A stretch of DNA of 64,000 nt. Origin: an uncultured Gemmatimonadota bacterium (GTDB taxonomy: Bacteria > JAAXHH01). A model generated the notes under the pieces. The model did not search any database. It had not been told where the DNA came from and saw only the letters and a list, made by a program, of their open reading frames with translations. Positions 1 through 14,539 of this stretch are shown in pieces (position 1 is the first letter of the stretch; each line of letters begins with the position of its first letter). Made by a program: the position numbers and the translations under genes. The DNA lies in assembly GCA_951812955.1 (NCBI GenBank), contig OX638340.1, forward strand, positions 2,304,001 to 2,368,000, in the 5' to 3' direction.

Positions 1-126
1 GCTTCCAGGGGAGTCCGCTGGCCGGTTTCAGCGACTGTATCCGTTGCGGAGGATTGGGCCTGTAGGCGACCCTGCATGAGTAAAACGAGCAGCACCGCTA
101 CCAGAAGAACAGGGTATCTGGTCATG
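1..126 (-). CDS. Partial CDS: N-terminal ~42 aa (signal-peptide-like MTRYPVLLVAVLL...) of a small secreted protein that continues beyond the window start
   Basis: Reverse-strand ATG at 124-126. It is a near-identical copy of the N-terminus of the chimeric ORF at 4935..5057. The N-terminus is hydrophobic. Confidence 0.35.
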
Positions 127-237
127 CCAAACCAACTTGTAGGGGGAAATGACGAAAAGAGATGGAACCTGCTTTAACAGATCCAGGTAATGCCTGCAAC
201 CTACCCTTATTCGCGGCCACAGTCAAACAAAAGCGGC

Positions 238-2610
238 CTAATCTCGCCGCAGGGTGTCCGCCGGGTTGAGCATGGCGCTTCGGAAGGTATGCACGCTCAC
301 GGTGAGCAGGGCGGTGGCCAGGACAACCAGTCCCGCCGCGACGAAAGGCGCAGCACCGATCTCCGTCCGGTAGGCGAAGTCCGCCAGCCACTCGTTCATG
401 AGCCACCAGGCGGCCGGCCAGGCGAGGACGTTGCCGATCACCACGAGGACGACGAACTGCCTCGACAGCAGGCCGACTATATCTGAGACCGCGGCGCCCA
501 TCACCTTGCGGATGCCGACTTCCCGCGTGCGGCGCGCGATGTCCAGCGACACGAGTCCATATACACCCAGGCAGGCGATCAGCAGGGCGAATACCGCGGA
601 ATAGGTGAAAATGCGCGCAAGGTTGGCTTCACCCTCGTAGAATCGGGCGATGTCGTCATCAAGGAAGGAATACTCGAAAAGCGATTCCGGGGCGATCTCC
701 ATCCATGCCGCTCTCAACAGATCCAACGTGGCAGGCAGGTCCCGCCCGCTGACGCGTACCAGGAGGAAATTAACACCACCCTGGGTTTCCTCCCCGAAGG
801 AAGCGGGATTCATCGTCAGGATTACCGGCTCTATTTCTTGATGCATCGACTGGTAGTGGTAGTCCTCCAACACGCCGATGACCGTATATCCGTGGGGCAG
901 GGTCCGTCCGAGGGGGTCGTCCCATTCCATCACCCTGGCCGCGGCTTGGTTGATTATACATGACCCGGATTCGTCGTTGCCGAACTCCCGGGAAAAATCT
1001 CGTCCTGAGACCAGGTTCAGCTCTAGCGCCTTCACGTAATCGTAATCCACCGTGAACATATATGCTTCAAGCTTGTTCCCGTCCTTATCTGTATAGGCGG
1101 ACTGACCCAGGCCCCGACCGAAGGTGTTGGAAGCTCCCGTCACCAGGATTACGTTCTCATACGAGTTTATCCTGGATTTATAGACGTCCGCGGAGTTGGA
1201 ATTGGGCCCCATGTGGATGACGATGACGTTTTCCTTGTTGTATCCCAGATCTGTGTTCATGACGAAGTCCAACTGTCGGGTCATGACGAGTATGGAAACA
1301 ACGAGTAAGGCAGACAGGCCGAACTGGACGACCATCAGGCCGCGGATAACCAGGTTTGGGCTCCCGATCCGAACCTGATGTCTGAATACGGCAACGGGAT
1401 TGAAACGGGAGAGGATCAGGGCGGGATAGCTCCCGGACGCCAGGGCAACCAGGCCAGTCAACACTAGTAGCGCGGCGATCGTAGAGCCGTTGGAGAGATA
1501 ATCTAGGACGTATGAGCTTCCCGCCAGCGTGTTGAATACAGGAAGAAACAGGTGGGCCAGGATAACGCCTAAGATGAGGGCGAAGCAACTCAACACCGCG
1601 GTCTCACCCAGGAACTGTTTCATGATCTGGGTTTTCTGCGCACCGAACACCTTCCGCAGTCCAACCTCCCTGGCGCGCGAAGACGATCGGCAGAAGGCCA
1701 GGTTCATGAAATTCACGCAGGCGATGAAAAGAACGAAAAGCGCCGTGCAAATCAGTATGTAAGACCTGTTGGGATCGCTCGTGGTACCCTGGCCAAACCT
1801 CACACCCTGAGCAAGATACATGTCCGTTAAAGGCTGCAATTCCAGGTATGGCGATCCCATCTGTGAAAAATGAGTCTCGACAAAACCCGGCAACTGGTTT
1901 TCAAGCATGTCTGCCATTTCCGGATCCGACAGCTCGACGTAGGTTGAGGAGACACTGTAGTTCCAATTGCCGATCGCCTGATTCGTCCAGTTGTCGATAG
2001 CAAACATTTTGTCGAAGGGGATCAGGAAATCGAACCGTATGCTGGAATTAACCGGAGTGTTCTCTGCTACCCCGGCCACCAAAAACGGTTCACCTCGTAT
2101 CGTGAGTTGCCTGCCCAGGGGGCTTCCCGTCCCAAAATACTTCTCGGCGGCGGACTGGCTGATCACCACCGAGTTCAGTTCGTTCAGGACCGTCCCGGGA
2201 TCACCTTCGATCAATGGGAAGGAGAACACGCTGAATATCGATGGATCGCTATACAGAACGTGTTCTTCCCGGAACACATCATTACCAACACGGACTTCCG
2301 CCCCTCCGGTGGTTCGTATTCGCACGGTCTGTTCGACGCCGGGATACTGTTCCTTAAAGGCAGCGGCAAGTGGAAGAGGGGTAATCCCACTGGTATATAA
2401 GTTATCCTCGAAACCTGATCCACCGACGTTGACCCGGTAGATCCGGTCCGCCTTCTCGTGAAAGGCGTCGTAGGTCCACTCCTGGCGCACGAAGAGAAAT
2501 ACGAGGAGGCTGCAGGCGATGCCGGTGGACAGGCCCAGCGTGTTGATGAAGAAGTAGCCCTTGTTGCCGAACAGGTGCCGAAACGCGATGACAAGGTGGT
2601 TTTTCAGCAT
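238..2610 (-). CDS. ABC transporter permease, FtsX/MacB-like with duplicated FtsX domains (790 aa)
   Basis: N-terminus MLKNHLVIAFRHLFGNKGYFFINTLGLSTGIAC... is typical of MacB/FtsX permeases. A large periplasmic domain lies between TM helices. Two FtsX-type C-terminal TM bundles are present (...IARRTREVGIRKVMGA...). Confidence 0.85.
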   Translation of the reverse strand: MLKNHLVIAFRHLFGNKGYFFINTLGLSTGIACSLLVFLFVRQEWTYDAFHEKADRIYRVNVGGSGFEDNLYTSGITPLPLAAAFKEQYPGVEQTVRIRTTGGAEVRVGNDVFREEHVLYSDPSIFSVFSFPLIEGDPGTVLNELNSVVISQSAAEKYFGTGSPLGRQLTIRGEPFLVAGVAENTPVNSSIRFDFLIPFDKMFAIDNWTNQAIGNWNYSVSSTYVELSDPEMADMLENQLPGFVETHFSQMGSPYLELQPLTDMYLAQGVRFGQGTTSDPNRSYILICTALFVLFIACVNFMNLAFCRSSSRAREVGLRKVFGAQKTQIMKQFLGETAVLSCFALILGVILAHLFLPVFNTLAGSSYVLDYLSNGSTIAALLVLTGLVALASGSYPALILSRFNPVAVFRHQVRIGSPNLVIRGLMVVQFGLSALLVVSILVMTRQLDFVMNTDLGYNKENVIVIHMGPNSNSADVYKSRINSYENVILVTGASNTFGRGLGQSAYTDKDGNKLEAYMFTVDYDYVKALELNLVSGRDFSREFGNDESGSCIINQAAARVMEWDDPLGRTLPHGYTVIGVLEDYHYQSMHQEIEPVILTMNPASFGEETQGGVNFLLVRVSGRDLPATLDLLRAAWMEIAPESLFEYSFLDDDIARFYEGEANLARIFTYSAVFALLIACLGVYGLVSLDIARRTREVGIRKVMGAAVSDIVGLLSRQFVVLVVIGNVLAWPAAWWLMNEWLADFAYRTEIGAAPFVAAGLVVLATALLTVSVHTFRSAMLNPADTLRRD

Positions 2611-2779
2611 GATCGTTTTGCCTCCTGTCGCTTACGAGCTGTAAGCCGGAAAACGTTCCTGAGGAAACACGATCTTGGAATGGCAAAGGGGATCTACGGT
2701 TTCGACCCGTCGATCCCCTGAAAAGTTGCATGTTGGTAACTATTGCGATGCCGGAACTTACGTAGTGCATTCCCGACTG

Positions 2780-4381
2780 TCAGTCAACGACAAACGTGTT
2801 TTCACTACGGCGAAAACTCCTATCATCGCCAAACGAAACATCATAAACCAGTCTATACTCACCGGCGACTTCCGGATCGTATGGGCAAGCGTCGAATTCC
2901 ACCCGTGTGGCCTCGATGTCTTCCCATGTACTGCCCATATCGTCGCTTCGCTGCCATACGGAGTAATGGACCGTCATGGGGATACCTAACGGCTGAGTTG
3001 GGTAGTTGTTTAGTTCAGCACGAAAGAGTGAACTTGCACAGTATTCTATAGTTATAGGAGTATATCCTGGTCCCGTGAATATCAACTTACCGGGCTCGAC
3101 CTTCCAACCTTCCCACGGGACATAGACTATCTCGTCGACTGGCTCGTCGACGCCTTCGCCGCCATCCCCGCCATCCCCGCCTTCACCACCTTCCCCTTCA
3201 GTCGGAACCATGACCGTGATACTCACCATGGCCGACACGTCGCCGGACGCGGCCGTGACTACGGCCATGCCGTTGCCCACCGCTTCTACCAATCCATCCT
3301 CGTCCACGGTGATCACGTTTTCGTCACCGCTCGTCCACGTGACGGCCGGTTCGGCAATGGCATTGTCGTTCCCGTCGCTGACGGAAACCATGAGTTGCAG
3401 GGTCTGTTCGATCTCGGTCAGCGTGGTGGCATCGGGTGCGACCTCGATGCTGATGCCGGCCGGAACCTGGGCGACGGTGATCGACGCAGTCCCCATAGCG
3501 TCTCCGGCCTGTGCCGTGATCTCCGCCATGCCGTTGTCCACCGCGGTCACAAGCCCGTTCTCGTCCACGGTGGCCACGGCGTCATCGGCGCTTGACCAGG
3601 TCACCATCACGTCCTCCATCGCGTTTTCGTGCTGGTCCAGCACGACGGCCGCGAGTTCCACGGTGTCGCCGATCGCTTCCAGCGTGTGCGCAGCGGGCTC
3701 GATCGTCAGGCTCGTCGGCACGGATACGGATACCGTGATGGACGCACTGGCGGACAGGCTGCCGGATGTGGCCGTGATCTCAGCCATCCCGTTACTCACC
3801 GCCGTTACAAGGCCCGCCCCGCTCACGGTCGCCACGGCGTCGTCGCCGCTCGACCAGGTGATGGACTGGCCGGACATGATGTTGTTCCGCTGATCCCGCA
3901 CCGTAGCCGACAACTGTACCGTTTCCCCGATCGCCTTCAGCGTATGGGACGTCGGTGCGACCGTGATCCGGGTCGGCACCGGCTCGGCCACCGTGATGTT
4001 CGCAGTGCCCGTCGCGTTGCCGGACTGCGCCCTTATTTGCGCGGCGCCGTTGGCCACGGCCGTCACCAGGCCATTTCCGCTGACAGTCGCCACCGCGGTA
4101 TTGCTGCTCGACCAAGTCACCGCCTGGCCGGTCATCGGATTGTTGTTCTGGTCCCTCACCATGGCCATCAGTTGCACGGTCGCGCCAATCGTCGCCAGCG
4201 TGTGCGAAGACGGCGTGACAGAAATGCTCGTCGCAACGGGCGCAGGCGGTGGAGCAGGCGGGGTCGGTGTGGACGGCTCGGGACTCGTCGGGCTGCTGTC
4301 CCCGCCACCGCATCCCGCCAGAAAAACCAGGTACAAGGATGCCGTGATCTTGGCGAACACGCGACTGTATGGACCAAACAC
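2780..4381 (-). CDS. Surface lipoprotein with 4 bacterial Ig-like (Big-2) repeats and a distinct C-terminal domain (533 aa)
   Basis: Lipobox LVFLAGC is followed by a Pro/Thr-rich linker. There are four ~85-aa repeats of the type VTPSSHTLATIGATVQL...VTWSS...ATVSGNGLVTAV.NG.A.I.A. A Gly/Glu-rich linker follows, then a ~120-aa C-terminal domain. Confidence 0.8.
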   Translation of the reverse strand: MFGPYSRVFAKITASLYLVFLAGCGGGDSSPTSPEPSTPTPPAPPPAPVATSISVTPSSHTLATIGATVQLMAMVRDQNNNPMTGQAVTWSSSNTAVATVSGNGLVTAVANGAAQIRAQSGNATGTANITVAEPVPTRITVAPTSHTLKAIGETVQLSATVRDQRNNIMSGQSITWSSGDDAVATVSGAGLVTAVSNGMAEITATSGSLSASASITVSVSVPTSLTIEPAAHTLEAIGDTVELAAVVLDQHENAMEDVMVTWSSADDAVATVDENGLVTAVDNGMAEITAQAGDAMGTASITVAQVPAGISIEVAPDATTLTEIEQTLQLMVSVSDGNDNAIAEPAVTWTSGDENVITVDEDGLVEAVGNGMAVVTAASGDVSAMVSITVMVPTEGEGGEGGDGGDGGEGVDEPVDEIVYVPWEGWKVEPGKLIFTGPGYTPITIEYCASSLFRAELNNYPTQPLGIPMTVHYSVWQRSDDMGSTWEDIEATRVEFDACPYDPEVAGEYRLVYDVSFGDDRSFRRSENTFVVD

Positions 4382-4463
4382 TGCTGTCTCCTTTCGGCTA
4401 ATTACTGAAAAGCGGTTCGTTGTAATCTACCGTTCTTGATCTCGATGAACAGATTATCTGACT

Positions 4464-5057
4464 TCATGCACGCAGGCCCTTCATACTCTCCCGGGCCGCT
4501 TCGAGGGTCCGGTCGATGTCTTCTTCGGTATGGGCCAGGGACACAAACCCCGTTTCAAGGCGCGAAGGCGCCAGGTAGACGCCCCGGTCCAGCATATTCC
4601 AGAAGTATCGCCCGTACGTATCCGCGTCTGACGTGGAAGCTGCATCGAAATTGTTGACGGTCTGATCTGTGAAGAAGGTACACATCATGGAGCCCACACG
4701 GGTCAGGCAGGCCGGGACGCCGGCCGCTTCCGCCGCGGCGCGAAGGCCGTCGCCGAGGCGGGCGGCCAGGGATTCCAGCCGGTCGTAGACCCCGGGTTCC
4801 TGAAGCTGCCGCACCGTTTCATATCCAGCGGTCATGGCAAGCGGATTGCCGGACAGCGTGCCGGCCTGGTAAACCTCACCGGCGGGCGCCACGGTTTCCA
4901 TGAACTTTTCCTGGTCGAATAGCGCACGTCCCGCTTCCAGGGGAGTCCGCTGGCCGGTTTCAGCGACTGTATCATCTGCGGTGGATTGGGCCTGGAGGCG
5001 ACCCTGCATGAGAAAAACGAGCAGGACCGCTACCAGAAGTACAGGGTATCTGGTCAT
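4464..5057 (-). pseudogene. Chimeric duplication-junction ORF: signal peptide of the small secreted protein fused in frame to the C-terminal 145 aa of glutamate-1-semialdehyde aminomutase (hemL fragment)
   Basis: Residues METVAPAGEVYQAGTLSGNPL...ESMKGLRA are identical to the C-terminus of hemL at 9855..11144. The N-terminal 50 aa matches the ORF at 1..126. Similarity to unit 2 stops abruptly at ~4903. Confidence 0.6.
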
Positions 5058-5169
5058 GGCAAACCAACTCGTAGGGGGAAATGACGGAAAGAAATGGAAC
5101 CTGCTTTAACATATGCAGGTAATGCCTGCAACCTACCCTTATTCGCGGCCTCAGTCAAACAAATGCGGC

Positions 5170-7541
5170 CTACTCGCTCCGCAGGGTGTCCGCCGGGTTG
5201 AGCATAGCGCTTCGGAAAGTATGCACGCTCACGGTGAGCAGGGCGGTGGCCAGGACAACTAGTCCCGCCGCGACGAAAGGCGCAGCACCGATCTCCGTCC
5301 GGTAGGCGAAGTCCGCCAGCCACTCGTTCATGAGCCACCAGGCGGCCGGCCAGGCCAGGACGTTGCCGATCACCACGAGGACGACGAACTGCCTCGACAG
5401 CAGGCCGACTATATCTGAGACCGCGGCGCCCATCACCTTGCGGATGCCGACTTCCCGCGTGCGGCGCGCGATGTCCAGCGACACGAGTCCATATACGCCG
5501 AGGCAGGCGATCAGCAGGGCGAATACCGCGGAATAGGTGAAAATCAGCGCCAGGTTGTTCTCATCCTGGTAGAACCGTTCTATATCGTCTTCCATGAAGA
5601 AATACTCGTAGGGCGTCTCAGGCGCTGTCCCCTTCCACGCGTCCTCGAGCAGGGAAAGCGTGGTTGGCAGATCCCTGCCGCTGACCCGGACCAGGAGGAA
5701 GCCGTAACTGACCGAAGTGTTACCCATGGATGTGGGATTGAGGGAGAGTATAATCGGATCGATCTCCTGGTGCAGCGACTGGAAATGGAAGTCCTTGACT
5801 ACGCCGATTACCGTATACCCATGGGGCAGTTTGCGCCCGATCGGATCTTCCCATTCCAGCTTCTTTGCCGCGGCCTCGTTGATGATGCACGATTGGAACT
5901 CGTCGTTTACGAATTCGCTGGAAAAATCACGGCCACGGACGAGGTTCAGTTCAAGCGTCTCCAGGTAATCGCGGTCCACGGTCGCCATGAACGCTTCCAG
6001 CTTGTTTCCGTCCGGTCGGTGTAGGCAACCTGGGGCAAGAAATGCCCCTGACCAAAGGTGCTGGAAGTGCCGGAAACCAGGAGTATGTCTTCGTACGGTA
6101 TCACTTTGCTGCGAAAGATCTCCAGGTCGTTTGAATTGAAGGGGGCCTGGATGACTACCACGTTGTGCGGGTTGAACCCCAAATCCCCCGTCCGCACAAA
6201 GTCCAGCTGCCGGGTCATGATGAGAATTGAAATGACGAGCAACGCGGACAACCCGAACTGCACGACCATCAAGCCGCGCACGAAGAGATTCGGCCCTCCG
6301 ATCTGAACCTGTTGCCGGAAGATGGTGACGGGGTTGTAGTGTGAGAGCACCAGGGAAGGATAACTGCCGGAAACCAGGGCGACCAGCACGGTCAAACCCG
6401 TCAGCGCGGCCAGCGTGGATCCGTTCGTCAGGTAGTCCAGCACGAGGGACTTTCCCGCCAGCATATTGAAAACCGGAAGGAACAGGTGGGCCAGGGCCAC
6501 GCTCAGCACCAGGGCGAAGCAGCACAGCGCCGCGGTTTCGCCCAAGTGCTGTCCCATGATCTGGGTTCGGCGCGCGCCGTAAACTTTCCTGACACCGACC
6601 TCTTTCACACGCGAAGACGAACGGCAGACGGCCAGGTTCATGAAGTTGACGCAGGCGATGAATAGTACGAGCAGCGCCGTGCAAATCAGGATGTAGGACC
6701 GGTTGGGATCGCTGGTGGGACCCAGCCCGAATTTGACTTCCTGATCCAGGTAGATATCGGTGATGGGTTGCAGGATCAGATAGGGCGACGAGTAGGCCGG
6801 GAAATGGGTTTCGACGAATTCCGGCAGTTGACTGAGGAGCGATTCTACTCGATCCGGATCCCCGAGTTCGATGAAAGTGGCCGTGGACGAATAGTTCCAC
6901 TTTCCGATGGCATTCGATATCCAGGGGTTTATTTCCGGCGCCTTGTCAAAGGGTATGAGCAGGTCGAACCGAATACTGGAGTTATCCGGTCCGTTCTCCG
7001 CGACGCCGGTTACGGTCAGCGGAATGCCCTGTACCAGGAGCGTCCTGCCCGTCGGAGACTCCTGGCCGAAGTACTTCGCCGCGGCGGATTTGCTGACGAC
7101 CACTGAATTCGCCTCGCCGAGGGCCGTACCGGGATCGCCTTCGATCATCGTGAAGGAGAACATCTCGAAGAAGGACGGATCGCAGAAAAGGGCGTTCTCC
7201 TTGCGGAACGTATCTTCTCCGATGCGAATATCGGATGGATATTCCGTTATGCGCACGGTCCGGACCACGTCGGGATATTGCTGCTCCAGGGTAGCCGCGA
7301 GCGGGAGGGGAGTTCTCGCGCTTATGAACGGGTTGTCGTCGAAATCCACTCCACCGGCTGCGACCTGGTAGATCCGGTCCGATTTCTCGTGGAAGGCGTC
7401 GTAGGTCCACTCGTGGCGGACGAAGAGAAAGATCAGGAGGCAGCACGCGATACCGGTCGACAGGCCAAAAGTATTGATGAAGAAATAACCCTTGTTGGCG
7501 AACAGGTACCGCAACGCGATGACGAGGTTGTTTTTCACCAT
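5170..7541 (-). pseudogene. Second copy of the FtsX/MacB-like ABC permease, apparently frameshifted (two overlapping ORFs 5946..7541 and 5170..6900)
   Basis: The N-terminal 531-aa ORF and the C-terminal 576-aa ORF together align to the 790-aa permease at 238..2610. The reading frame is lost around 6010-6030, where ...AYTDR(T)ETSW in this copy replaces AYTDKDGNKLE in copy 1, consistent with a 1-bp indel. This could be a genuine pseudogene or a sequencing error. Confidence 0.55.
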
Positions 7542-7708
7542 GATCGTATTGCCTCCTGTCGCTTACGCATGCAAGCAGGAAAACGCACCTGGGGAAAGAC
7601 GATCCTGCAATGGCAAAGGGGATCTACGGTTTCGACCCGTCGATCCCCTTAAAGGTTGCATGTTGGTAACTATTGCGATTGGGAACTTACGTTGTGCATT
7701 CCTGACTG

Positions 7709-9772
7709 TCAGGGGATGACAAACGTATTCTCACTACGGCGAAAACTCCTATCATCGTCAAGCGAAATATCACCAACCAGTCTATACTCACCGGCGACTT
7801 CCGGATTGTATGGGCAAGCGTCGAATTCCACCCGTGTGTCCTCGATGTCTTCCCATGTACTGCCCATATCGTCGCTTCGCTGCCATACGGAGTAATGGAC
7901 CGTAATGGTGACACCTAACGGAGTTGGGCGGTTGTTTAGTTCTCCACCTAAGAGTGAACTTGCGCAGTTTACTATAGGTATTGTAGCAAGTCCTGGGACC
8001 GTAAAAACCAACCGACCGGGCTCGACCCGCACACCTTCCCACGGGACGTAGGTGACTTCATCCACCGTAATGGTCACCGTGATGCTCACCATGGCCGACA
8101 CGTCGCCGGACGCGGCCGTAACTTCGGTCATGCCGTTGCCCACAGCTTCTACCAACCCATCCTCGTCCACGGTGACCACGTTCTCGTCACCGCTCGTCCA
8201 CGTGACGGCCGGTTCGGCAATGGCATTGTCGTTCCCGTCGCTGACGGAAACCATGAGTTGCAGGGTCTGTTCGATCTCGGTCAGCGTGGTGGCATCGGGT
8301 GCGACCTCGATGCTGATGCCGGCCGGAACCTGGGCGACGGTGATCGACGCAGTCCCCATAGCGCCTCCGGCCTGGGCCGTGATCTCCGCCATGCCGTTGT
8401 CCACCGCGGTGACCACGCCGTTCTCGTCCACGGTGGCCACGGCGTCGTCGCCGCTCGACCAGGTCACCATCACGTCCTCCATCGCGTTTTCGTGCTGGTC
8501 CAGTACGACGGCCGCGAGTTCCACGGTGTCGCCGATCGCTCCCAGCGTGTGCGCGGCTGGCTCGATCGTGATGCTCGTTGCCACGGGCTCGGATATCACC
8601 ATGACCGTGATACTCACCATGGCCGATACGTCGCCGGATGCGGCCGTAACTGCGGCCATGCCGTTCCCCACCGCTTCTACCAAACCATCCTCGTCCACGG
8701 TGGCCACGTTTTCGTCACCGCTCGTCCACGTGACGGCCGGTTCGGCAATGGCATTGTCGTTCCCGTCGCTGACGGAAACCATGAGTTGCAGGGTCTGTTC
8801 GATCTCGGTCAGCGTGGTGGCATCGGGTGCGACCTCGATGCTGATGCCGGCCGGAACCTGGGCGACGGTGATCGACGCAGTCCCCATAGCGTCTCCGGCC
8901 TGTGCCGTGATCTCCGCCATGCCGTTGTCCACCGCGGTCACAAGCCCGTTCTCGTCCACGGTGGCCACGGCGTCATCGGCGCTTGACCAGGTCACCATCA
9001 CGTCCTCCATCGCGTTTTCGTGCTGGTCCAGCACGACGGCCGCGAGTTCCACGGTGTCGCCGATCGCTTCCAGCGTGTGCGCAGCGGGCTCGATCGTCAG
9101 GCTCGTCGGCACGGATACGGATACCGTGATGGACGCACTGGCGGACAGGCTGCCGGATGTGGCCGTGATCTCAGCCATCCCGTTACTCACCGCCGTTACA
9201 AGGCCCGCCCCGCTCACGGTCGCCACGGCGTCGTCGCCGCTCGACCAGGTGATGGACTGGCCGGACATGATGTTGTTCCGCTGATCCCGCACCGTAGCCG
9301 ACAACTGTACCGTTTCCCCGATCGCCTTCAGCGTATGGGACGTCGGTGCGACCGTGATCCGGGTCGGCACCGGCTCGGCCACCGTGATGTTCGCAGTGCC
9401 CGTCGCGTTGCCGGACTGCGCCCTTATTTGCGCGGCGCCGTTGGCCACGGCCGTCACCAGGCCATTTCCGCTGACAGTCGCCACCGCGGTATTGCTGCTC
9501 GACCAAGTCACCGCCTGGCCGGTCATCGGATTGTTGTTCTGGTCCCTCACCATGGCCATCAGTTGCACGGTCGCGCCAATCGTCGCCAGCGTGTGCGAAG
9601 ACGGCGTGACAGAAATGCTCGTCGCAACGGGCGCAGGCGGTGGAGCAGGCGGGGTCGGTGTGGACGGCTCGGGACTCGTCGGGCTGCTGTCCCCGCCACC
9701 GCATCCCGCCAGAAAAACCAGGTACAAGGATGCCGTGATCTTGGCGAACACGCGACTGTATGGACCAAACAC
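7709..9772 (-). CDS. Surface lipoprotein with 6 Big-2 repeats (paralogue of 2780..4381; 687 aa)
   Basis: The N-terminal ~380 aa are identical to copy 1. There are two extra Big-2 repeats (an internal tandem duplication of repeats 3-4). The C-terminal domain is diverged from copy 1 and the Gly/Glu linker is absent. Confidence 0.8.
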   Translation of the reverse strand: MFGPYSRVFAKITASLYLVFLAGCGGGDSSPTSPEPSTPTPPAPPPAPVATSISVTPSSHTLATIGATVQLMAMVRDQNNNPMTGQAVTWSSSNTAVATVSGNGLVTAVANGAAQIRAQSGNATGTANITVAEPVPTRITVAPTSHTLKAIGETVQLSATVRDQRNNIMSGQSITWSSGDDAVATVSGAGLVTAVSNGMAEITATSGSLSASASITVSVSVPTSLTIEPAAHTLEAIGDTVELAAVVLDQHENAMEDVMVTWSSADDAVATVDENGLVTAVDNGMAEITAQAGDAMGTASITVAQVPAGISIEVAPDATTLTEIEQTLQLMVSVSDGNDNAIAEPAVTWTSGDENVATVDEDGLVEAVGNGMAAVTAASGDVSAMVSITVMVISEPVATSITIEPAAHTLGAIGDTVELAAVVLDQHENAMEDVMVTWSSGDDAVATVDENGVVTAVDNGMAEITAQAGGAMGTASITVAQVPAGISIEVAPDATTLTEIEQTLQLMVSVSDGNDNAIAEPAVTWTSGDENVVTVDEDGLVEAVGNGMTEVTAASGDVSAMVSITVTITVDEVTYVPWEGVRVEPGRLVFTVPGLATIPIVNCASSLLGGELNNRPTPLGVTITVHYSVWQRSDDMGSTWEDIEDTRVEFDACPYNPEVAGEYRLVGDISLDDDRSFRRSENTFVIP

Positions 9773-9854
9773 TGCTGTCTCCTTTCGGCTAATTACTGAA
9801 AAGCGGTTCGTTGTAATCTACCGTTCTTGATCTCGATGAACAGATTATCTGACT

Positions 9855-11144
9855 TCATGCACGCAGGCCCTTCATACTCTCCCGGGCCGCTTCGAGGGTC
9901 CGGTCGATGTCTTCTTCGGTATGGGCCAGGGACACAAACCCCGTTTCAAGGCGCGAAGGCGCCAGGTAGACGCCCCGGTCCAGCATATTCCAGAAGTATC
10001 GCCCGTACGTATCCGCGTCTGACGTGGAAGCTGCATCGAAATTGTTGACGGTCTGATCTGTGAAGAAGGTACACATCATGGAGCCCACACGGGTCAGGCA
10101 GGCCGGGACGCCGGCCGCTTCCGCCGCGGCGCGAAGGCCGTCGCCGAGGCGGGCGGCCAGGGATTCCAGCCGGTCGTAGACCCCGGGTTCCTGAAGCTGC
10201 CGCACCGTTTCATATCCAGCGGTCATGGCAAGCGGATTGCCGGACAGCGTGCCGGCCTGGTAAACCTCACCGGCGGGCGCCACGGTTTCCATGATTTCCC
10301 TGCGACCGCCATAGGCCCCCACGGGAAGTCCTCCCCCGATGATCTTGCCCAGGCAGGTCATGTCGGCCGAGATGCCGAATCGTTCCTGCGCTCCGCCGAA
10401 TGCGATCCTGAATCCCGTGATGACCTCGTCAAAAATCAGAATGATCCCCCGCTTCTCCGTCTCTTCCCGAATGGTTTCGAGAAAGCCTTCGGCCGGAGGG
10501 ATCATGCCCATGTTGCCGGCGACCGGCTCTACGATCACGCAGGCGACGTCGCCGCCCCGCTCCGCCAGGGTGCGCCGGACGGCCTCGACGTCGTTGTAGG
10601 GTAGATTGATGGTCATCTTCGCCAGGTCCGCAGGCACGCCGGGACTGTCGGGGATGCCGAATGTCGCGGCGCCGGAACCGGCCTGGATGAGAAAGCTGTC
10701 TCCGTGGCCGTGGTATCCCGCCTCGAATTTGACCGCCAGGTCGCGCCCCGTGTATCCGCGGGCGACGCGCAGGGCGCTCATGGTCGCTTCCGTGCCGGAG
10801 TTGACCATGCGTATCAGGTCGATGGACGGGAAGGCGGTCCTGACCAGTTCCGCCAGCCTGATCTCGGCTTCGGTGGGCGTGCCGAAACTCGTACCCCGTT
10901 CACAGGCCTTCTTCAGGGCCTCGACCACGGCGGGATGGCCGTGGCCCAGGATCAGCGGTCCCCAGGATCCCAGGTAATCGATGTACTCGTTGCCGTCCAC
11001 GTCGTAGACCCTGGAACCCGCGCCCCGGTCCATGAAGACGGGGCTTCCTCCAACCCGCCCGAAATTCCGCACGGGGCTGTTCACCCCGCCGGGCATGGAT
11101 CGCTGGGCCTGGTCGAAGAGGGTACTGGATCGGGAACGGTTCAT
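9855..11144 (-). CDS. hemL: Glutamate-1-semialdehyde 2,1-aminomutase
   Basis: Full-length class III PLP aminotransferase of 429 aa. Motifs are typical of HemL (e.g. YNDVEAV, GGLPVGAYGGRREIM). Confidence 0.95.
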   Translation of the reverse strand: MNRSRSSTLFDQAQRSMPGGVNSPVRNFGRVGGSPVFMDRGAGSRVYDVDGNEYIDYLGSWGPLILGHGHPAVVEALKKACERGTSFGTPTEAEIRLAELVRTAFPSIDLIRMVNSGTEATMSALRVARGYTGRDLAVKFEAGYHGHGDSFLIQAGSGAATFGIPDSPGVPADLAKMTINLPYNDVEAVRRTLAERGGDVACVIVEPVAGNMGMIPPAEGFLETIREETEKRGIILIFDEVITGFRIAFGGAQERFGISADMTCLGKIIGGGLPVGAYGGRREIMETVAPAGEVYQAGTLSGNPLAMTAGYETVRQLQEPGVYDRLESLAARLGDGLRAAAEAAGVPACLTRVGSMMCTFFTDQTVNNFDAASTSDADTYGRYFWNMLDRGVYLAPSRLETGFVSLAHTEEDIDRTLEAARESMKGLRA

Positions 11145-11159
11145 ACGATTTATTCCATT

Positions 11160-12128
11160 TCAGAGTCTTCGGGCGACATCCATCGCGAAATAAGTGAGGA
11201 TCATGTCGGCGCCGGCGCGTTTTATGGCGGTCAGCGACTCCAGGACGATCCGTTCTTCGTCGATCCAGCCTTTCTGTCCTGCCGCCTTGATCATGGCGTA
11301 TTCCCCGCTCACGTTGTAGGCGGCCACCGGCACTTCAAAGGCCGATTTGACTCGTTGTATCACGTCGAGATAGGCCAGGGCCGGCTTGACCATGACGATA
11401 TCGGCGCCTTCCTCAAGGTCGAGTTCTACTTCCCGCAGCGCTTCGGTGGCGTTCGCCGGGTCCATCTGGTAGGAACGGCGGTCGCCGAATTGCGGGACCG
11501 AGTCCGCGGCGTCGCGAAAGGGCCCGTAATACGCCGAAGCGTACTTGGCGGAATAGGCCAGGATCGGGACATGCCCGAGGTGTTCGCCGTCCAGACCCTC
11601 CCGGATCGCACGCACGCGGCCGTCCATCATGTCCGACGGCGCAACCAGGTCCGCGCCGGCGCGGGCCTGCGAGAGCGCGGTCCTGACGAGCAGGCGAAGC
11701 GTGGCATCGTTCTCCACGTCGCCGTCCCGGATCACGCCGCAGTGCCCGTGATCGGTGTACTCGCAGAGGCATACGTCGCCGATGACGGTCAGTTCCGGTA
11801 CCGCTTGCTTGATCGCGCCAATGGCCCGTTGCACGATGCCGTCGTCCGCATAGGCTCCGGAACCGTAGGCGTCCTTGCTCTCCGGGATGCCGAAGAGCAT
11901 GACGGCCGGGATACCCAGGTCCACGACTTCACGGCAGGCCTCCACGGCCTGGTCAACCGACTGCCGGTCCACGCCGGGCATCGAATCTACCGGGGAACGT
12001 ACGCCTTCGCCCGGGCAGATGAACATGGGATAGACCAGGTCGTCCACGGAGAGCCGGGTCTCGCCGATCATGGCGCGCAGGCTTCCGGTCCGCCGCAGGC
12101 GCCGTAGCCGATGTACGGGAAATGCCAT
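11160..12128 (-). CDS. hemB: Porphobilinogen synthase (delta-aminolevulinate dehydratase), Zn-type
   Basis: Collinear match to E. coli HemB along the full length. It includes the Cys-rich zinc site [14 protein letters not shown] and the active-site region [10 protein letters not shown]. Confidence 0.95.
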
Positions 12129-12154: not shown

Positions 12155-12772
12155 TCAGTACCCCCCGCAGTTGGCGCAACCGCCGCTGTCAAATCCGTTC
12201 AAAGCACTGCAGCGTTCACACTGGAACAGGAGATGCCCGGCGTCTATGGACCGTGACGCCATCAAATTCAGCGCCGTCGCCCGGAGTTTCGAGGGCACGA
12301 TGATCCTCGCCGACTCGTCCGAACATGGACCGGTAAGCAGGCCGGAGTCCTGCTTGGTCGAGAACACCCGGCTGTCCACACCCTGCTGTGCGAGGAAACG
12401 CTGGTAGCTCAGCGCTTCACGGTCTTCGGCCCGATAGAGGATTTCCTCCTTCGGAAACTCTTCTACCAATCCATGTCTTTCACAGAAATACCGGCCATGA
12501 CGGCGTATCCCGCAGTCCTCGCACACGTGCCGTCCGCAGACGACGCACAGGCCGTGCGCAGGTCCGGCCGGATGGTTCAGGCATCGAAGATCGTCGATGA
12601 ATACTGTGCCGCAGACCGGGCAGGACCCCAGGTCGCCCGGGATCTCCTCCTTGCACTCGTCGCAAACCCACGTCGACACCTCATTCAGGGCGTTAACCAG
12701 GGTGGACGCGCAGATAGGGCATTTTTCCTCGCCGCGGGCGTATTCACATTCGCATTCCGGGCAGAAAGGCAT
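12155..12772 (-). CDS. Cysteine-rich zinc-ribbon protein (about 8 CxxC pairs), unknown function, embedded in the haem operon
   Basis: 205 aa with repeated CxxC pairs (CPEC, CPIC, CDEC, CPVC, CVVC, CEDC, CERC, CANC). No similarity to known Hem enzymes was recognised. Confidence 0.55.
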   Translation of the reverse strand: MPFCPECECEYARGEEKCPICASTLVNALNEVSTWVCDECKEEIPGDLGSCPVCGTVFIDDLRCLNHPAGPAHGLCVVCGRHVCEDCGIRRHGRYFCERHGLVEEFPKEEILYRAEDREALSYQRFLAQQGVDSRVFSTKQDSGLLTGPCSDESARIIVPSKLRATALNLMASRSIDAGHLLFQCERCSALNGFDSGGCANCGGY

Positions 12773-12967: not shown

Positions 12968-14539
12968 TTATTCCGTGTGCTGCTTTCCCGCGGCCAGCCG
13001 GTCGCGCACGATCGCGGCCACGAGCGCTGAGACGGTGGCCTGAGCGGGCACAATGTCCACGGACAGGCCTGCTTCCGCGGCGGTTTTGGCCGTGGCCGGA
13101 CCTATGCAGGCGATGCGGACGCCCCCGGCCAGCCGCTTAAGGCGATCCGGCCCCGCGGCCTTCGTAAACGCCGACACGGCCGACGAACTCGCGAATACGG
13201 CGAGATGGATCTTCCGGTCTTCCAGCATGGACGCGATGCCGTCCGGCAACCTCTCTTCCATGACCGTTCGATAGACCGTTATCCTCGTCACGGACGCACC
13301 GGCGCGGGCAAGTCCCTCCACGACGGCTGGCCCCGCGATATCCGCCGCGGGAAAGAGGATCCGTGCATCCAGCAGGTCGCGGTTTCCGGCCAGGGTTTCC
13401 ACCAGGTTTTCGGCCCGGAAGACATCGGGTTGGCAGTCCGCTTCAATCCCGCAGTTTCGCAGCGCGCCGGCCGTGGCCCGGCCTACCGCGGCGACGCGAA
13501 CTCCGCCCAGGGCCCTGGCGTCCAGGCCCTGTTCGACTAAACGCGAGAAAAACGCCTTCACGGCGTTACCGCTGGTGAAAACCACGTAATCGAATCCGGA
13601 AAGGTCGGACAGCGCGGCATCGGTTTCCGACCAGTCATCGGGCGCTTCGATCCGTATCAGCGGAGCTTCGACCGGCTCCGCGCCCTGCCGGACGAGAGAT
13701 TCCGACAGTTCGCCGGCCTGGTCGCGGGCGCGTGTTACCAGTGCTCGGACCCCGAAAAGCGGTTTCGATTCGAACCAATCGAGCTGCGAACGCAGCGAAA
13801 CGACTTCGCCCACGACGATCAGTACGGGCGGGGTGAAGGAAGCCGGACGGGACCTGGATACGATATCGTCCAAAGTGCCGACGAGGGTCCTTTGCTTCGG
13901 CGTCGTGCCCCACTGGATCAGCGCGATGGGCGTATCCTTCGGCCGCCCGTGTTCGATCAACCGTTCCACGATGAAGGGCAGGTTCCGCGCGCCCATGTAG
14001 AAGATCAGCGTGCCGATCCGTTTGGCGAAAGCCTCCCAGTCTAGATCCGTCCGGGACTTGTCCGGCGATTCGTGGCCGGTGACCACGGTCATCGTCGAGG
14101 TGATCTCACGATGGGTCACCGGTATGCCGGCGTAGGCCGGGACCGCGACGGCCGCCGTGACGCCGGGAACGACCTCGAATGGGATTCCGTGGCGTTGCAG
14201 GTGCAGTCCTTCTTCGCCTCCCCGGCCGAACACGAATGGGTCGCCGCCCTTCAACCGGACCACGGTCTTCCCGGCCTCGCTGTGACGCACCAGCAGGTTG
14301 TTGATCTCCTCCTGCCGTCCGGGACGCCAGGGAACGCGGATGCGCACGGCCTGTGAAGGCGCCTCCGCCACCAGCCGGTCATCGGCGAGGAAATCGGCAA
14401 CGACGACGTCGGCCCGGCGCACGCATTCCAGGCCCTTCACGGTAATCAGTCCGGGGTCGCCGGGACCCGCGCCCACCAGGTAAACGATTCCTGCGGACCG
14501 CGGGGTGGATACGCGCTTGGTCGGGGATTCGCCGTTCAT
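12968..14539 (-). CDS. cobA/hemD: Bifunctional uroporphyrinogen-III C-methyltransferase / uroporphyrinogen-III synthase
   Basis: The N-terminal half carries the SUMT signature VYLVGAGPGDPGLITVKG...VVRLKGGDPFVFGRGGEE. The C-terminal half is HemD-like (...LFGVRALVTRARDQ...). The 3' end overlaps hemC by 4 bp. Confidence 0.9.
   Translation of the reverse strand: MNGESPTKRVSTPRSAGIVYLVGAGPGDPGLITVKGLECVRRADVVVADFLADDRLVAEAPSQAVRIRVPWRPGRQEEINNLLVRHSEAGKTVVRLKGGDPFVFGRGGEEGLHLQRHGIPFEVVPGVTAAVAVPAYAGIPVTHREITSTMTVVTGHESPDKSRTDLDWEAFAKRIGTLIFYMGARNLPFIVERLIEHGRPKDTPIALIQWGTTPKQRTLVGTLDDIVSRSRPASFTPPVLIVVGEVVSLRSQLDWFESKPLFGVRALVTRARDQAGELSESLVRQGAEPVEAPLIRIEAPDDWSETDAALSDLSGFDYVVFTSGNAVKAFFSRLVEQGLDARALGGVRVAAVGRATAGALRNCGIEADCQPDVFRAENLVETLAGNRDLLDARILFPAADIAGPAVVEGLARAGASVTRITVYRTVMEERLPDGIASMLEDRKIHLAVFASSSAVSAFTKAAGPDRLKRLAGGVRIACIGPATAKTAAEAGLSVDIVPAQATVSALVAAIVRDRLAAGKQHTE

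Follow-up and report, generated by a model that had tools for sequence, protein, structure and literature searches.

How does a bacterial genome come to carry two consecutive copies of one lipoprotein-permease unit that are identical to the last nucleotide in one part and as little as 57% identical in another? The question is raised by one end of a 64,000-nt stretch of DNA from an uncultured Gemmatimonadota bacterium (assembly GCA_951812955.1, contig OX638340.1, positions 2,304,001 to 2,368,000), the whole of which is called the window below. Positions 1 to 10294 of the window consist of two tandem units, each with a gene for a lipoprotein containing Big_2 repeats and a gene for a duplicated FtsX/MacB-type permease, and one end of the repeat lies within hemL. 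We consider, with a probability of about 0.8, that the locus is a genuine tandem duplication of this unit, which had a single origin, has been inherited and has continued to recombine.

The repeat and its junction

All genes between positions 1 and 11144 lie on the minus strand. The order of transcription is intact hemL, lipoprotein 2, permease 2, an open reading frame (ORF) of 197 amino acids (aa), lipoprotein 1, permease 1 and a partial gene for a TPR and GWxTD protein. A BLASTN self-comparison, a windowed global alignment and an ungapped comparison place the two units at 1..4903 and 4904..10294, head to tail, collinear, on the minus strand and without a spacer. These alignments bear out the tandem segmental duplication with one end in hemL that had been proposed in a reading of the sequence alone (the sequence-only reading), including the match of 4464..4903 to the last 440 nt of hemL (9855..10294), which is 100% identical. 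The unit length of 5.4 kb given there holds for unit 2 (5,391 nt), but not for unit 1, which would be about 4,932 nt long (about 4.93 kb). As position 1 of the window corresponds to position 4933, the junction-equivalent position would come 29 nt further on, beyond the left edge, and unit 1 is seen without its distal end. If the window opened a contig, the assembly graph might have been cut there at a repeat boundary of the chromosome. The features of the locus are as follows.

1..125, minus strand: first 41 codons of the TPR and GWxTD gene, downstream of permease 1, extending past the left edge of the window
238..2610, minus strand: permease 1, 790 aa, intact, duplicated FtsX/MacB-type, allele class type 1
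287..612: conversion tract at the 3' end of permease 1, partner 5219..5544, 4 mismatches in 326 nt
2780..4381, minus strand: lipoprotein 1, 533 aa, lipobox LAGC, 4 Big_2 repeats, C-terminal domain without a Pfam family
3314..4903: perfect repeat, unit 1 copy (5' part of the lipoprotein gene, 82-nt spacer, hemL 3' fragment)
4464..4903, minus strand: hemL 3' fragment, 440 nt, HemL residues about 284-429 and stop codon
4902..4905: duplication junction, dinucleotide TC common to both parent sequences
4464..5057, minus strand: chimeric ORF, 197 aa, made of 51 TPR-GWxTD codons and 146 HemL C-terminal residues
5170..7541, minus strand: permease 2, allele class type 2 on a long branch, 1-nt deletion at 6012-6013
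7709..9772, minus strand: lipoprotein 2, 687 aa, 6 Big_2 repeats
8070..9125: tandem duplication inside lipoprotein 2, 2 x 528 nt with two Big_2 repeats each
8705..10294: perfect repeat, unit 2 copy, ending within intact hemL
9855..11144, minus strand: intact hemL, glutamate-1-semialdehyde 2,1-aminomutase, 429 aa, the proximal boundary gene

The identity between the units, scored in 100-nt windows of a global alignment of 1..4903 with 4933..10294, is a mosaic. It is 93% at positions 1-300, 98-99% at 301-600, 57-86% across the permease body (601-2400) and 79-93% at 2400-3000; an indel at about 3100-3230 is due to two additional Big_2 repeats in lipoprotein 2. From there, 3314..4903 and 8705..10294 are 100% identical, with 0 mismatches over 1,590 nt at an offset of 5,391 nt. 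A perfect repeat of 1.6 kb is far beyond what chance would produce.

Identity between the units stops abruptly at 4903/4904, and this is the new junction. Codon 51 of the TPR-GWxTD gene is joined here to hemL at about nt 850, about 440 nt before its stop codon. On the minus strand the junction reads ...GACCAGGAAAAGTTC followed directly by ATGGAAACCGTG... The corresponding parent sequences are ...GAAAAGTTC followed by GCGGAAGC... in intact TPR-GWxTD genes and ...GGGAAATC followed by ATGGAAACC... in hemL; TC, a 2-nt microhomology, is all that the two have in common at the join, with weak similarity nearby. The intact hemL has been kept at 9855..11144 beside the copy that bears the junction.

The same junction was found in other contigs. 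A protein search with the chimeric ORF returned an identical protein (P0001) and one that is 90% identical (P0002); P0002, P0121 and P0122 are relatives at 90-97%, the latter two belonging to the 90% cluster of P0001. The contigs that encode P0002, P0121 and P0122 are L040 (ERZ18545484, 39 kb), L041 (ERZ25067264), L042 (ERZ25072076) and L043 (ERZ25071132), the first with a name of the style 'ptg...l' and the other three of the style 'ctg..._Nx_l'. The junction is nucleotide-identical in the window and in all four contigs (5/5), and each of the four contains a permease gene, the chimeric ORF and a lipoprotein gene in that order. Where the contigs reach far enough, a second permease is present (L040, L042, L043), followed in L040 and L043 by the TPR-GWxTD gene. 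Behind the distal unit of L040 this gene is complete, and L043 has it in disrupted form; in the window it would come past the edge. No match to a 24-nt junction string was found in a scan of JGI metagenome contigs, and the 90% cluster of P0001 contained no second chimeric variant from the contig of P0001. Since five sequences have an identical junction, it would have arisen in a single event of illegitimate recombination. The sequence-only reading had also dismissed an assembly artefact due to a perfect repeat, and four further long-read contigs from four ENA assemblies, with a nucleotide-identical junction, agree with it.

Two short HemL-like proteins, P0008 and P0012, were considered as further junctions and rejected, as they come from frameshift-split hemL genes at loci without a duplication. 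In the unduplicated loci L044 (9130..10372) and L045 (8835..10369), hemL is read as two ORFs of 295 or 389 aa and then about 122 aa, apparently due to frameshifts or assembly errors in an essential gene.

The chimeric ORF had been predicted as an in-frame fusion of a signal peptide to the HemL C-terminus at 4464..5057, and this frame is indeed open over 197 aa. Its N-terminal partner, however, is not a small secreted protein as had been supposed. The translation of 1..125 (MTRYPVLLVAVLLVLL...) aligns with the N-termini of an 806-aa protein of L017 and of the product of an 842-aa ORF of L016. In relatives, the gene directly after that of the permease encodes this N-terminus as part of a protein of ~806-822 aa that combines TPR repeats with a GWxTD domain; the GWxTD model TIGR04514 scores 47.9 bits with the L017 orthologue and 51.5 bits with the second L040 paralogue (cutoff 28), and TPR matches from Pfam are present. 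The chimera begins at the native start codon of the TPR-GWxTD gene, with the upstream region of that gene in front of it, and its N-terminus forms, by inspection, a plausible Sec signal, MTRYPVLLVAVLLVFLMQGRLQA, followed by QS. The HemL part covers positions 276-421 of the 423 in TIGR00713 and scores 172.5 bits against a cutoff of 527.3, which is not a full-length HemL; with Pfam, the 197-aa ORF matches only the C-terminal third of the aminotransferase class-III fold.

Permease alleles, gene conversion and related loci

Each permease has two MacB_PCD and two FtsX domains (Pfam), which lie on a single 790-aa polypeptide in permease 1. The model of the 'Acidobacterial duplicated orphan permease' (ADOP, TIGR03434) is covered from position 5 to 803 with 293.1 bits, below the family cutoff of 622.3, and the ORF list contains no ATPase gene inside the unit. 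A permease and a Big-2 lipoprotein had been assigned to each unit; both are present, but the permease of unit 2 is frameshifted. It is broken into the overlapping ORFs 5946..7541 and 5170..6900, as a GGG run at 6012-6013 has lost one G. The deletion was placed by three-frame translation and alignment, and with the G restored a frame of 790 codons is open. The gene is apparently a pseudogene. The permease upstream of the junction in L041 and L042 is also frameshifted, in a different GGG run, and this deletion is common to two independent assemblies. These frameshifts in upstream permeases suggest that one permease copy is dispensable.

Permease 1 and permease 2 are 71% identical at the aa level and belong to different clades. 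Four deep clades, with 64-75% aa identity between them, appear in the permease tree:

Type 1: permease 1 of the window, L040_A, L043_A, L001-3
Type 2: L017, L006, L009-13, L015 and, on a long branch, permease 2 of the window
Type 3: L040_B, L043_B, L004, L005, L008, L014
Type 4: L007, L039

The permease of L001-L017, L039, L040 and L043 is conserved over its first ~70 and last ~120 residues and hypervariable in the middle. In aa, permease 1 shows 94% and 91% identity to the permeases that lie upstream in L043 and L040, and 82-83% to those of L001-L003; the closest matches of permease 2, with the G restored, are L012 and L017 at 75%. That the permease bodies, roughly 60-70% identical, are old duplicates that drifted apart does not agree with the tree, in which each is closer to single-copy orthologues elsewhere (83-94% and 75% aa). 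Moreover, the permease classes do not track the relationships of the flanking heme genes, and L017, the nearest relative by its flanks, has type 2. In the window, type 2 (frameshifted) lies upstream of the junction and type 1 downstream; in L040-L043, type 1 lies upstream, and type 3 is found downstream in L040 and L043. These observations suggest that the divergence of the two permeases reflects an exchange of alleles rather than the age of the duplication.

Against this background of divergence, the similar tracts of the two units are conspicuous. The 1,590-nt tract spans the whole hemL fragment, the spacer of 82 nt and ~1.07 kb at the start of the lipoprotein gene. The hemL fragments of the other carriers differ from that of the window by 6-11%, so one of the two sequences in the window, the fragment or the resident hemL, has been converted to match the other. 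A second tract, 287..612, matches unit 2 at 99% but type-1 relatives at only 84-88%, although identity to the same relatives is 89-98% in the adjoining segments of the permease-1 body; this is conversion within a gene that is otherwise of type 1. The tracts are sharply bounded, with flanking identities of 57-93%, and conversion was seen only where the partners are already similar, a pattern which fits homology-dependent recombination. Within this genome the two units thus seem still to convert each other. The alternatives offered in the sequence-only reading, an old duplication or one undergoing gene conversion, turn out both to hold: the junction is common to lineages that are 6-11% diverged, and the window contains two conversion tracts.

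Exchange appears to have taken place between lineages as well. L040 and L041 have a resident hemB, hemL and first lipoprotein of the L001-3 type, and the 3' end of the resident hemL is only 79.5% (L040) or 82.5% (L041) identical to the junction fragment of the same contig. All fragments are nearest to the hemL of the window (89.3-93.9%) and next to that of L017 (89-90%). A resident hemL that is ~80% identical to the fragment beside it implies that the junction segment entered these two genomes by recombination, and the junction cassette would thus have moved between lineages. Directly after the fragment, the spacer of L041 has a patch that is 53% identical to the window, and hence unrelated, between sides that are 95-97% identical.

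The state without duplication was sought in a scan of one genome per species (species representatives of GTDB), in which 39 loci were recovered. The close loci belong to metagenome-assembled genomes (MAGs) labelled Candidatus Latescibacterota or, in some records, 'Gemmatimonadetes', and the host genome of the window is Latescibacterota-like. A single unit, in the order cobA/hemD-orf-hemB-hemL-lipoprotein-permease, was found at all of the 14 loci that span the region from hemL to the permease, and L044 is likewise single. The comparison with related genomes that the sequence-only reading had recommended thus yields a single-copy state in 14/14 reference loci; its description of an active expansion locus is too strong, as two units are present here and in the other carriers and one in each of these references. 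The nearest backbone is that of L017 (OY762445.1), with 98% aa identity in hemB and 99% in the neighbouring orf. Latescibacterota are known associates of sponges (PMC8163846, PMC12993501). Several of the records have names in the manner of bins from work on sponge microbiomes, and the present clade appears, on our own inference, to be sponge-associated too.

Wherever it was checked, the permease gene of relatives is followed by a TPR-GWxTD gene and then by a gene of peptidase M29. Four loci (L010 12770..17624, L013 12698..17650, L040 12360..17462 and L044 15063..19947) have two tandem TPR-GWxTD paralogues, about 45% identical in aa, between the permease and the peptidase M29 gene; other relatives have one. 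Gene content varies over the whole stretch from hemL to the peptidase M29 gene. Short-read MAG contigs of two close relatives, L016 (1..896) and L019 (1..813), break within the permease gene, and such breaks would be expected if the repeat were also present there.

The lipoproteins have 4 (lipoprotein 1) and 6 (lipoprotein 2) Big_2 repeats by Pfam, and over the ~356 N-terminal residues that the perfect tract encodes they do not differ; identical N-termini and different repeat numbers had been noted before, correctly. The N-terminus ends its hydrophobic signal in ...LYLVFLAGC, with a lipobox cysteine by direct reading, and lipidation is predicted. Within lipoprotein 2, 8070-8597 and 8598-9125 are 93.4% identical. 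No Pfam family matches the last ~156 aa. In relatives, Big_2 repeat numbers vary widely and the lipoproteins range from 529 to about 700 aa. No co-variation between lipoprotein C-terminus and permease class was seen; the C-terminus of lipoprotein 1 is L017-like and permease 1 is of type 1. MacB/LolCE-type proteins move lipoproteins or other envelope cargo, and by analogy the permease could possibly pair functionally with the upstream lipoprotein.

The product of the intact hemL matches Aminotran_3 of Pfam (E = 1.5e-71) and is 90-95% identical in aa to HemL of relatives, in which the order cobA/hemD-orf-hemB-hemL is conserved. The gene sits in a same-strand heme/sirohaem cluster, the gene order of which is kept in all relatives, together with hemB (11160..12128), a cysteine-rich ORF of 205 aa without a family match (12155..12772) and a fused uroporphyrinogen methyltransferase/synthase gene (12968..14539). 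Pattern scans for promoters and terminators gave counts at chance level, and an Rfam search gave 0 matches. Three calls of tRNA-Gly(ccc) by ARAGORN, each of 93 nt on the plus strand (3335..3427, 8198..8290 and 8726..8818), were rejected; they lie antisense within Big_2 repeats, have no Rfam match and are almost certainly false positives caused by the repeat.

Origin of the array and competing explanations

The array would have originated in one illegitimate recombination at the 2-nt microhomology, which joined codon 51 of the TPR-GWxTD gene to hemL. Such an event would leave one intact copy of each boundary gene and a chimeric ORF at the join. The ancestor probably had a type-1 permease, a TPR-GWxTD gene with an L016-type N-terminus and a hemL of the window/L017 type. 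The contig of L016 does not include hemL, and it is the peptidase M29 and TPR-GWxTD genes of L016 that point to such a background. Homologous recombination would later have swapped one of the two permease bodies for other alleles, and by the same process the array, besides being inherited, would have passed between related lineages. Within the genome, the units would have been homogenised over the 1,590-nt tract and the 326-nt tract. Directly observed are the repeat, its shared junction, the single unit of relatives, the permease clades and the converted tracts. We infer this order of events, as well as the direction of conversion, and selection would have kept the two units in place.

Several points weigh against this account. 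The perfect 1,590-nt tract could in principle stem from over-polishing of a repeat during assembly. A third unit to the left of the window is possible, since the distal end of unit 1 falls outside it; the idea was prompted by the type-1 permeases found upstream of the junction in L040-L043. Either a full TPR-GWxTD gene or a further junction may lie there; what comes after the distal unit of L040 and L043 is the TPR-GWxTD gene. An intragenomic duplication with allele replacement and a junction formed between two haplotypes both fit the data. Finally, the non-neutral changes in the hemL fragments, described below, would be unexpected for an inert remnant unless the variation was imported from functional hemL genes.

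An assembly artefact specific to the window, in which the permease alleles of two co-occurring strains were stitched in series, is very unlikely. Identical flanks around a very divergent interior do have the look of a strain bubble, and the window starts 29 nt from the junction-equivalent position. A strain bubble, however, cannot make a new adjacency of hemL and the TPR gene, and the same junction recurs, across 6-11% divergence, in contigs from four ENA assemblies that are named in the style of two long-read assemblers. An old duplication in situ, the copies of which drifted apart and were homogenised in their identical stretches with no exchange of alleles with other lineages, has in its favour that the junction is old enough to be common to diverged carriers and that gene conversion is demonstrably active. 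It is nevertheless improbable. Either permease has more in common with single-copy orthologues of other genomes than with its neighbour; type 1, which lies downstream of the junction in the window, is upstream of it in L040-L043, with a third class downstream there; the cassette of L040 and L041 lies in a background with a hemL only about 80% identical to the fragment; and the region-spanning reference loci are single-copy without exception. The units may also have been heterologous from the start, if incoming DNA of a related strain was anchored by homology in or beyond the TPR-GWxTD gene and joined illegitimately within hemL. The topology and the 2-nt microhomology are compatible with such a junction between two haplotypes, and the locus clearly exchanges DNA between lineages, but a simple duplication in an L016-like ancestor already covers every junction-linked feature, and we regard the two-haplotype origin as unlikely.

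A different kind of alternative concerns the chimeric ORF, which may be a working new gene for an exported 146-residue HemL C-terminal domain, kept by selection and the reason why the array persists. The birth of a new gene at the junction would, if true, explain the open frame, a ratio of non-synonymous to synonymous substitution rates (dN/dS) of about 0.2-0.3 in all five carriers, and the persistence and spread of an otherwise unstable array. The ORF is open in all five sequences (5/5) despite a nucleotide divergence of 6-11%, and, as described above, it has inherited a native start codon and upstream region. Pairwise dN/dS is 0.14-0.26 in the fragments and 0.09-0.17 in the 3' ends of intact hemL genes. 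Changes private to single fragments, on the terminal branches, comprise 22 synonymous and 19 non-synonymous ones (omega about 0.3), which differ from the neutral expectation (P = 1e-4), and these counts rule out a neutral decay of the hemL fragment.

The excess of synonymous divergence in the fragments argues otherwise. It amounts to 0.17-0.32 in the fragments, compared with 0.03-0.15 in the adjoining 5' part of the lipoprotein gene, and the 265-nt non-coding stretch upstream of the junction has diverged by only 0.02-0.06. This is the pattern of an imported, diverged hemL and not of selection on the chimera. Import of hemL sequence that had already been under selection accounts for the low dN/dS as well as for the surplus of synonymous divergence, and selection on the chimera only for the former; for this reason the chimeric ORF is treated here as a by-product of the duplication and probably not a working gene. 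In addition, the window fragment has demonstrably been converted to match the resident hemL, a conserved motif, SGNP, reads SANP in L043, the C-terminal tail is altered in L041 and L042, and we know of no independent activity of a third of an aminotransferase fold. A function of the chimera is therefore doubtful.

Comparison with known systems

Bacterial tandem duplications are regarded as common but transient, and naturally fixed ones with a traceable junction are uncommon. Here, a junction of single origin serves as a marker with which the cassette can be followed through at least 5 assemblies and at least 2 genome backgrounds. The case would also illustrate the exchange of deeply diverged permease alleles and an ongoing gene conversion that extends to a fragment of an essential gene, converted by that gene. 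The lipoprotein-permease-TPR-GWxTD stretch, from hemL to the peptidase M29 gene, is a hypervariable and recombining region in this clade, where envelope proteins may hence be under diversifying selection.

Join points of short homology are known from spontaneous tandem duplications and amplifications in Salmonella, E. coli and Acinetobacter baylyi (reviewed in PMC11721125), including the cat amplifications of A. baylyi (PMC9997567) and the lac amplification of E. coli (PMC1428787). The present array resembles such spontaneous duplications in its head-to-tail repeat of a few kb, its one microhomology join, the presumed retention of an intact copy of either boundary gene, the chimeric ORF and the later recombination between copies. 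Laboratory duplications are unstable and are lost without selection. Unlike them, the array of the window is fixed in a natural lineage, is found in at least 5 assemblies across 6-11% divergence and has units that differ in allele class.

Homology-facilitated illegitimate recombination, which occurs in naturally transformable bacteria and combines one homologous anchor with one microhomology join, would give the same topology and would explain the entry of the cassette beside an 80%-identical hemL. Ordinary homologous recombination by double crossover in conserved flanks suffices, however, to move an existing junction, and these organisms are not known to be transformable.

The concerted evolution of bacterial duplicates by gene conversion is exemplified by tufA/tufB and the rRNA operons. 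The tracts of 100% and 99% identity between otherwise diverged copies are of this kind, and in 287..612 the gene's own allele type is demonstrably overwritten. Unlike the tufA/tufB type, conversion in the window would also keep a non-functional hemL fragment equal to an essential gene, and it affects only part of each unit, with permease bodies that remain 57-75% identical.

The permeases resemble the ADOP family in their length of about 800 aa, their two modules of MacB_PCD and FtsX and the lack of an adjacent ATPase gene. They differ from it in a score under the cutoff, which indicates a related family rather than a member, in their Big_2 lipoprotein partner and in a centre that is hypervariable between close relatives.

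A further comparison is offered by pilE/pilS of Neisseria, in which antigenic variation is based on silent cassettes. Both are surface-protein loci with a second, partly inactive copy and conversion between copies. In the present locus, unlike pilE/pilS, there are two units only, both lipoprotein genes are complete with their own upstream regions, and conserved rather than variable parts are converted. The several promoterless partial cassettes and the one expression site that define a silent-cassette system are absent from this locus, which shows no sign of programmed switching.

Thus, the anatomy is that of a classical short-homology tandem duplication, followed by concerted evolution, and no new type of system is involved. 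What is unusual in this array is its persistence, its spread across genome backgrounds and the presence of different allele classes in its two units.

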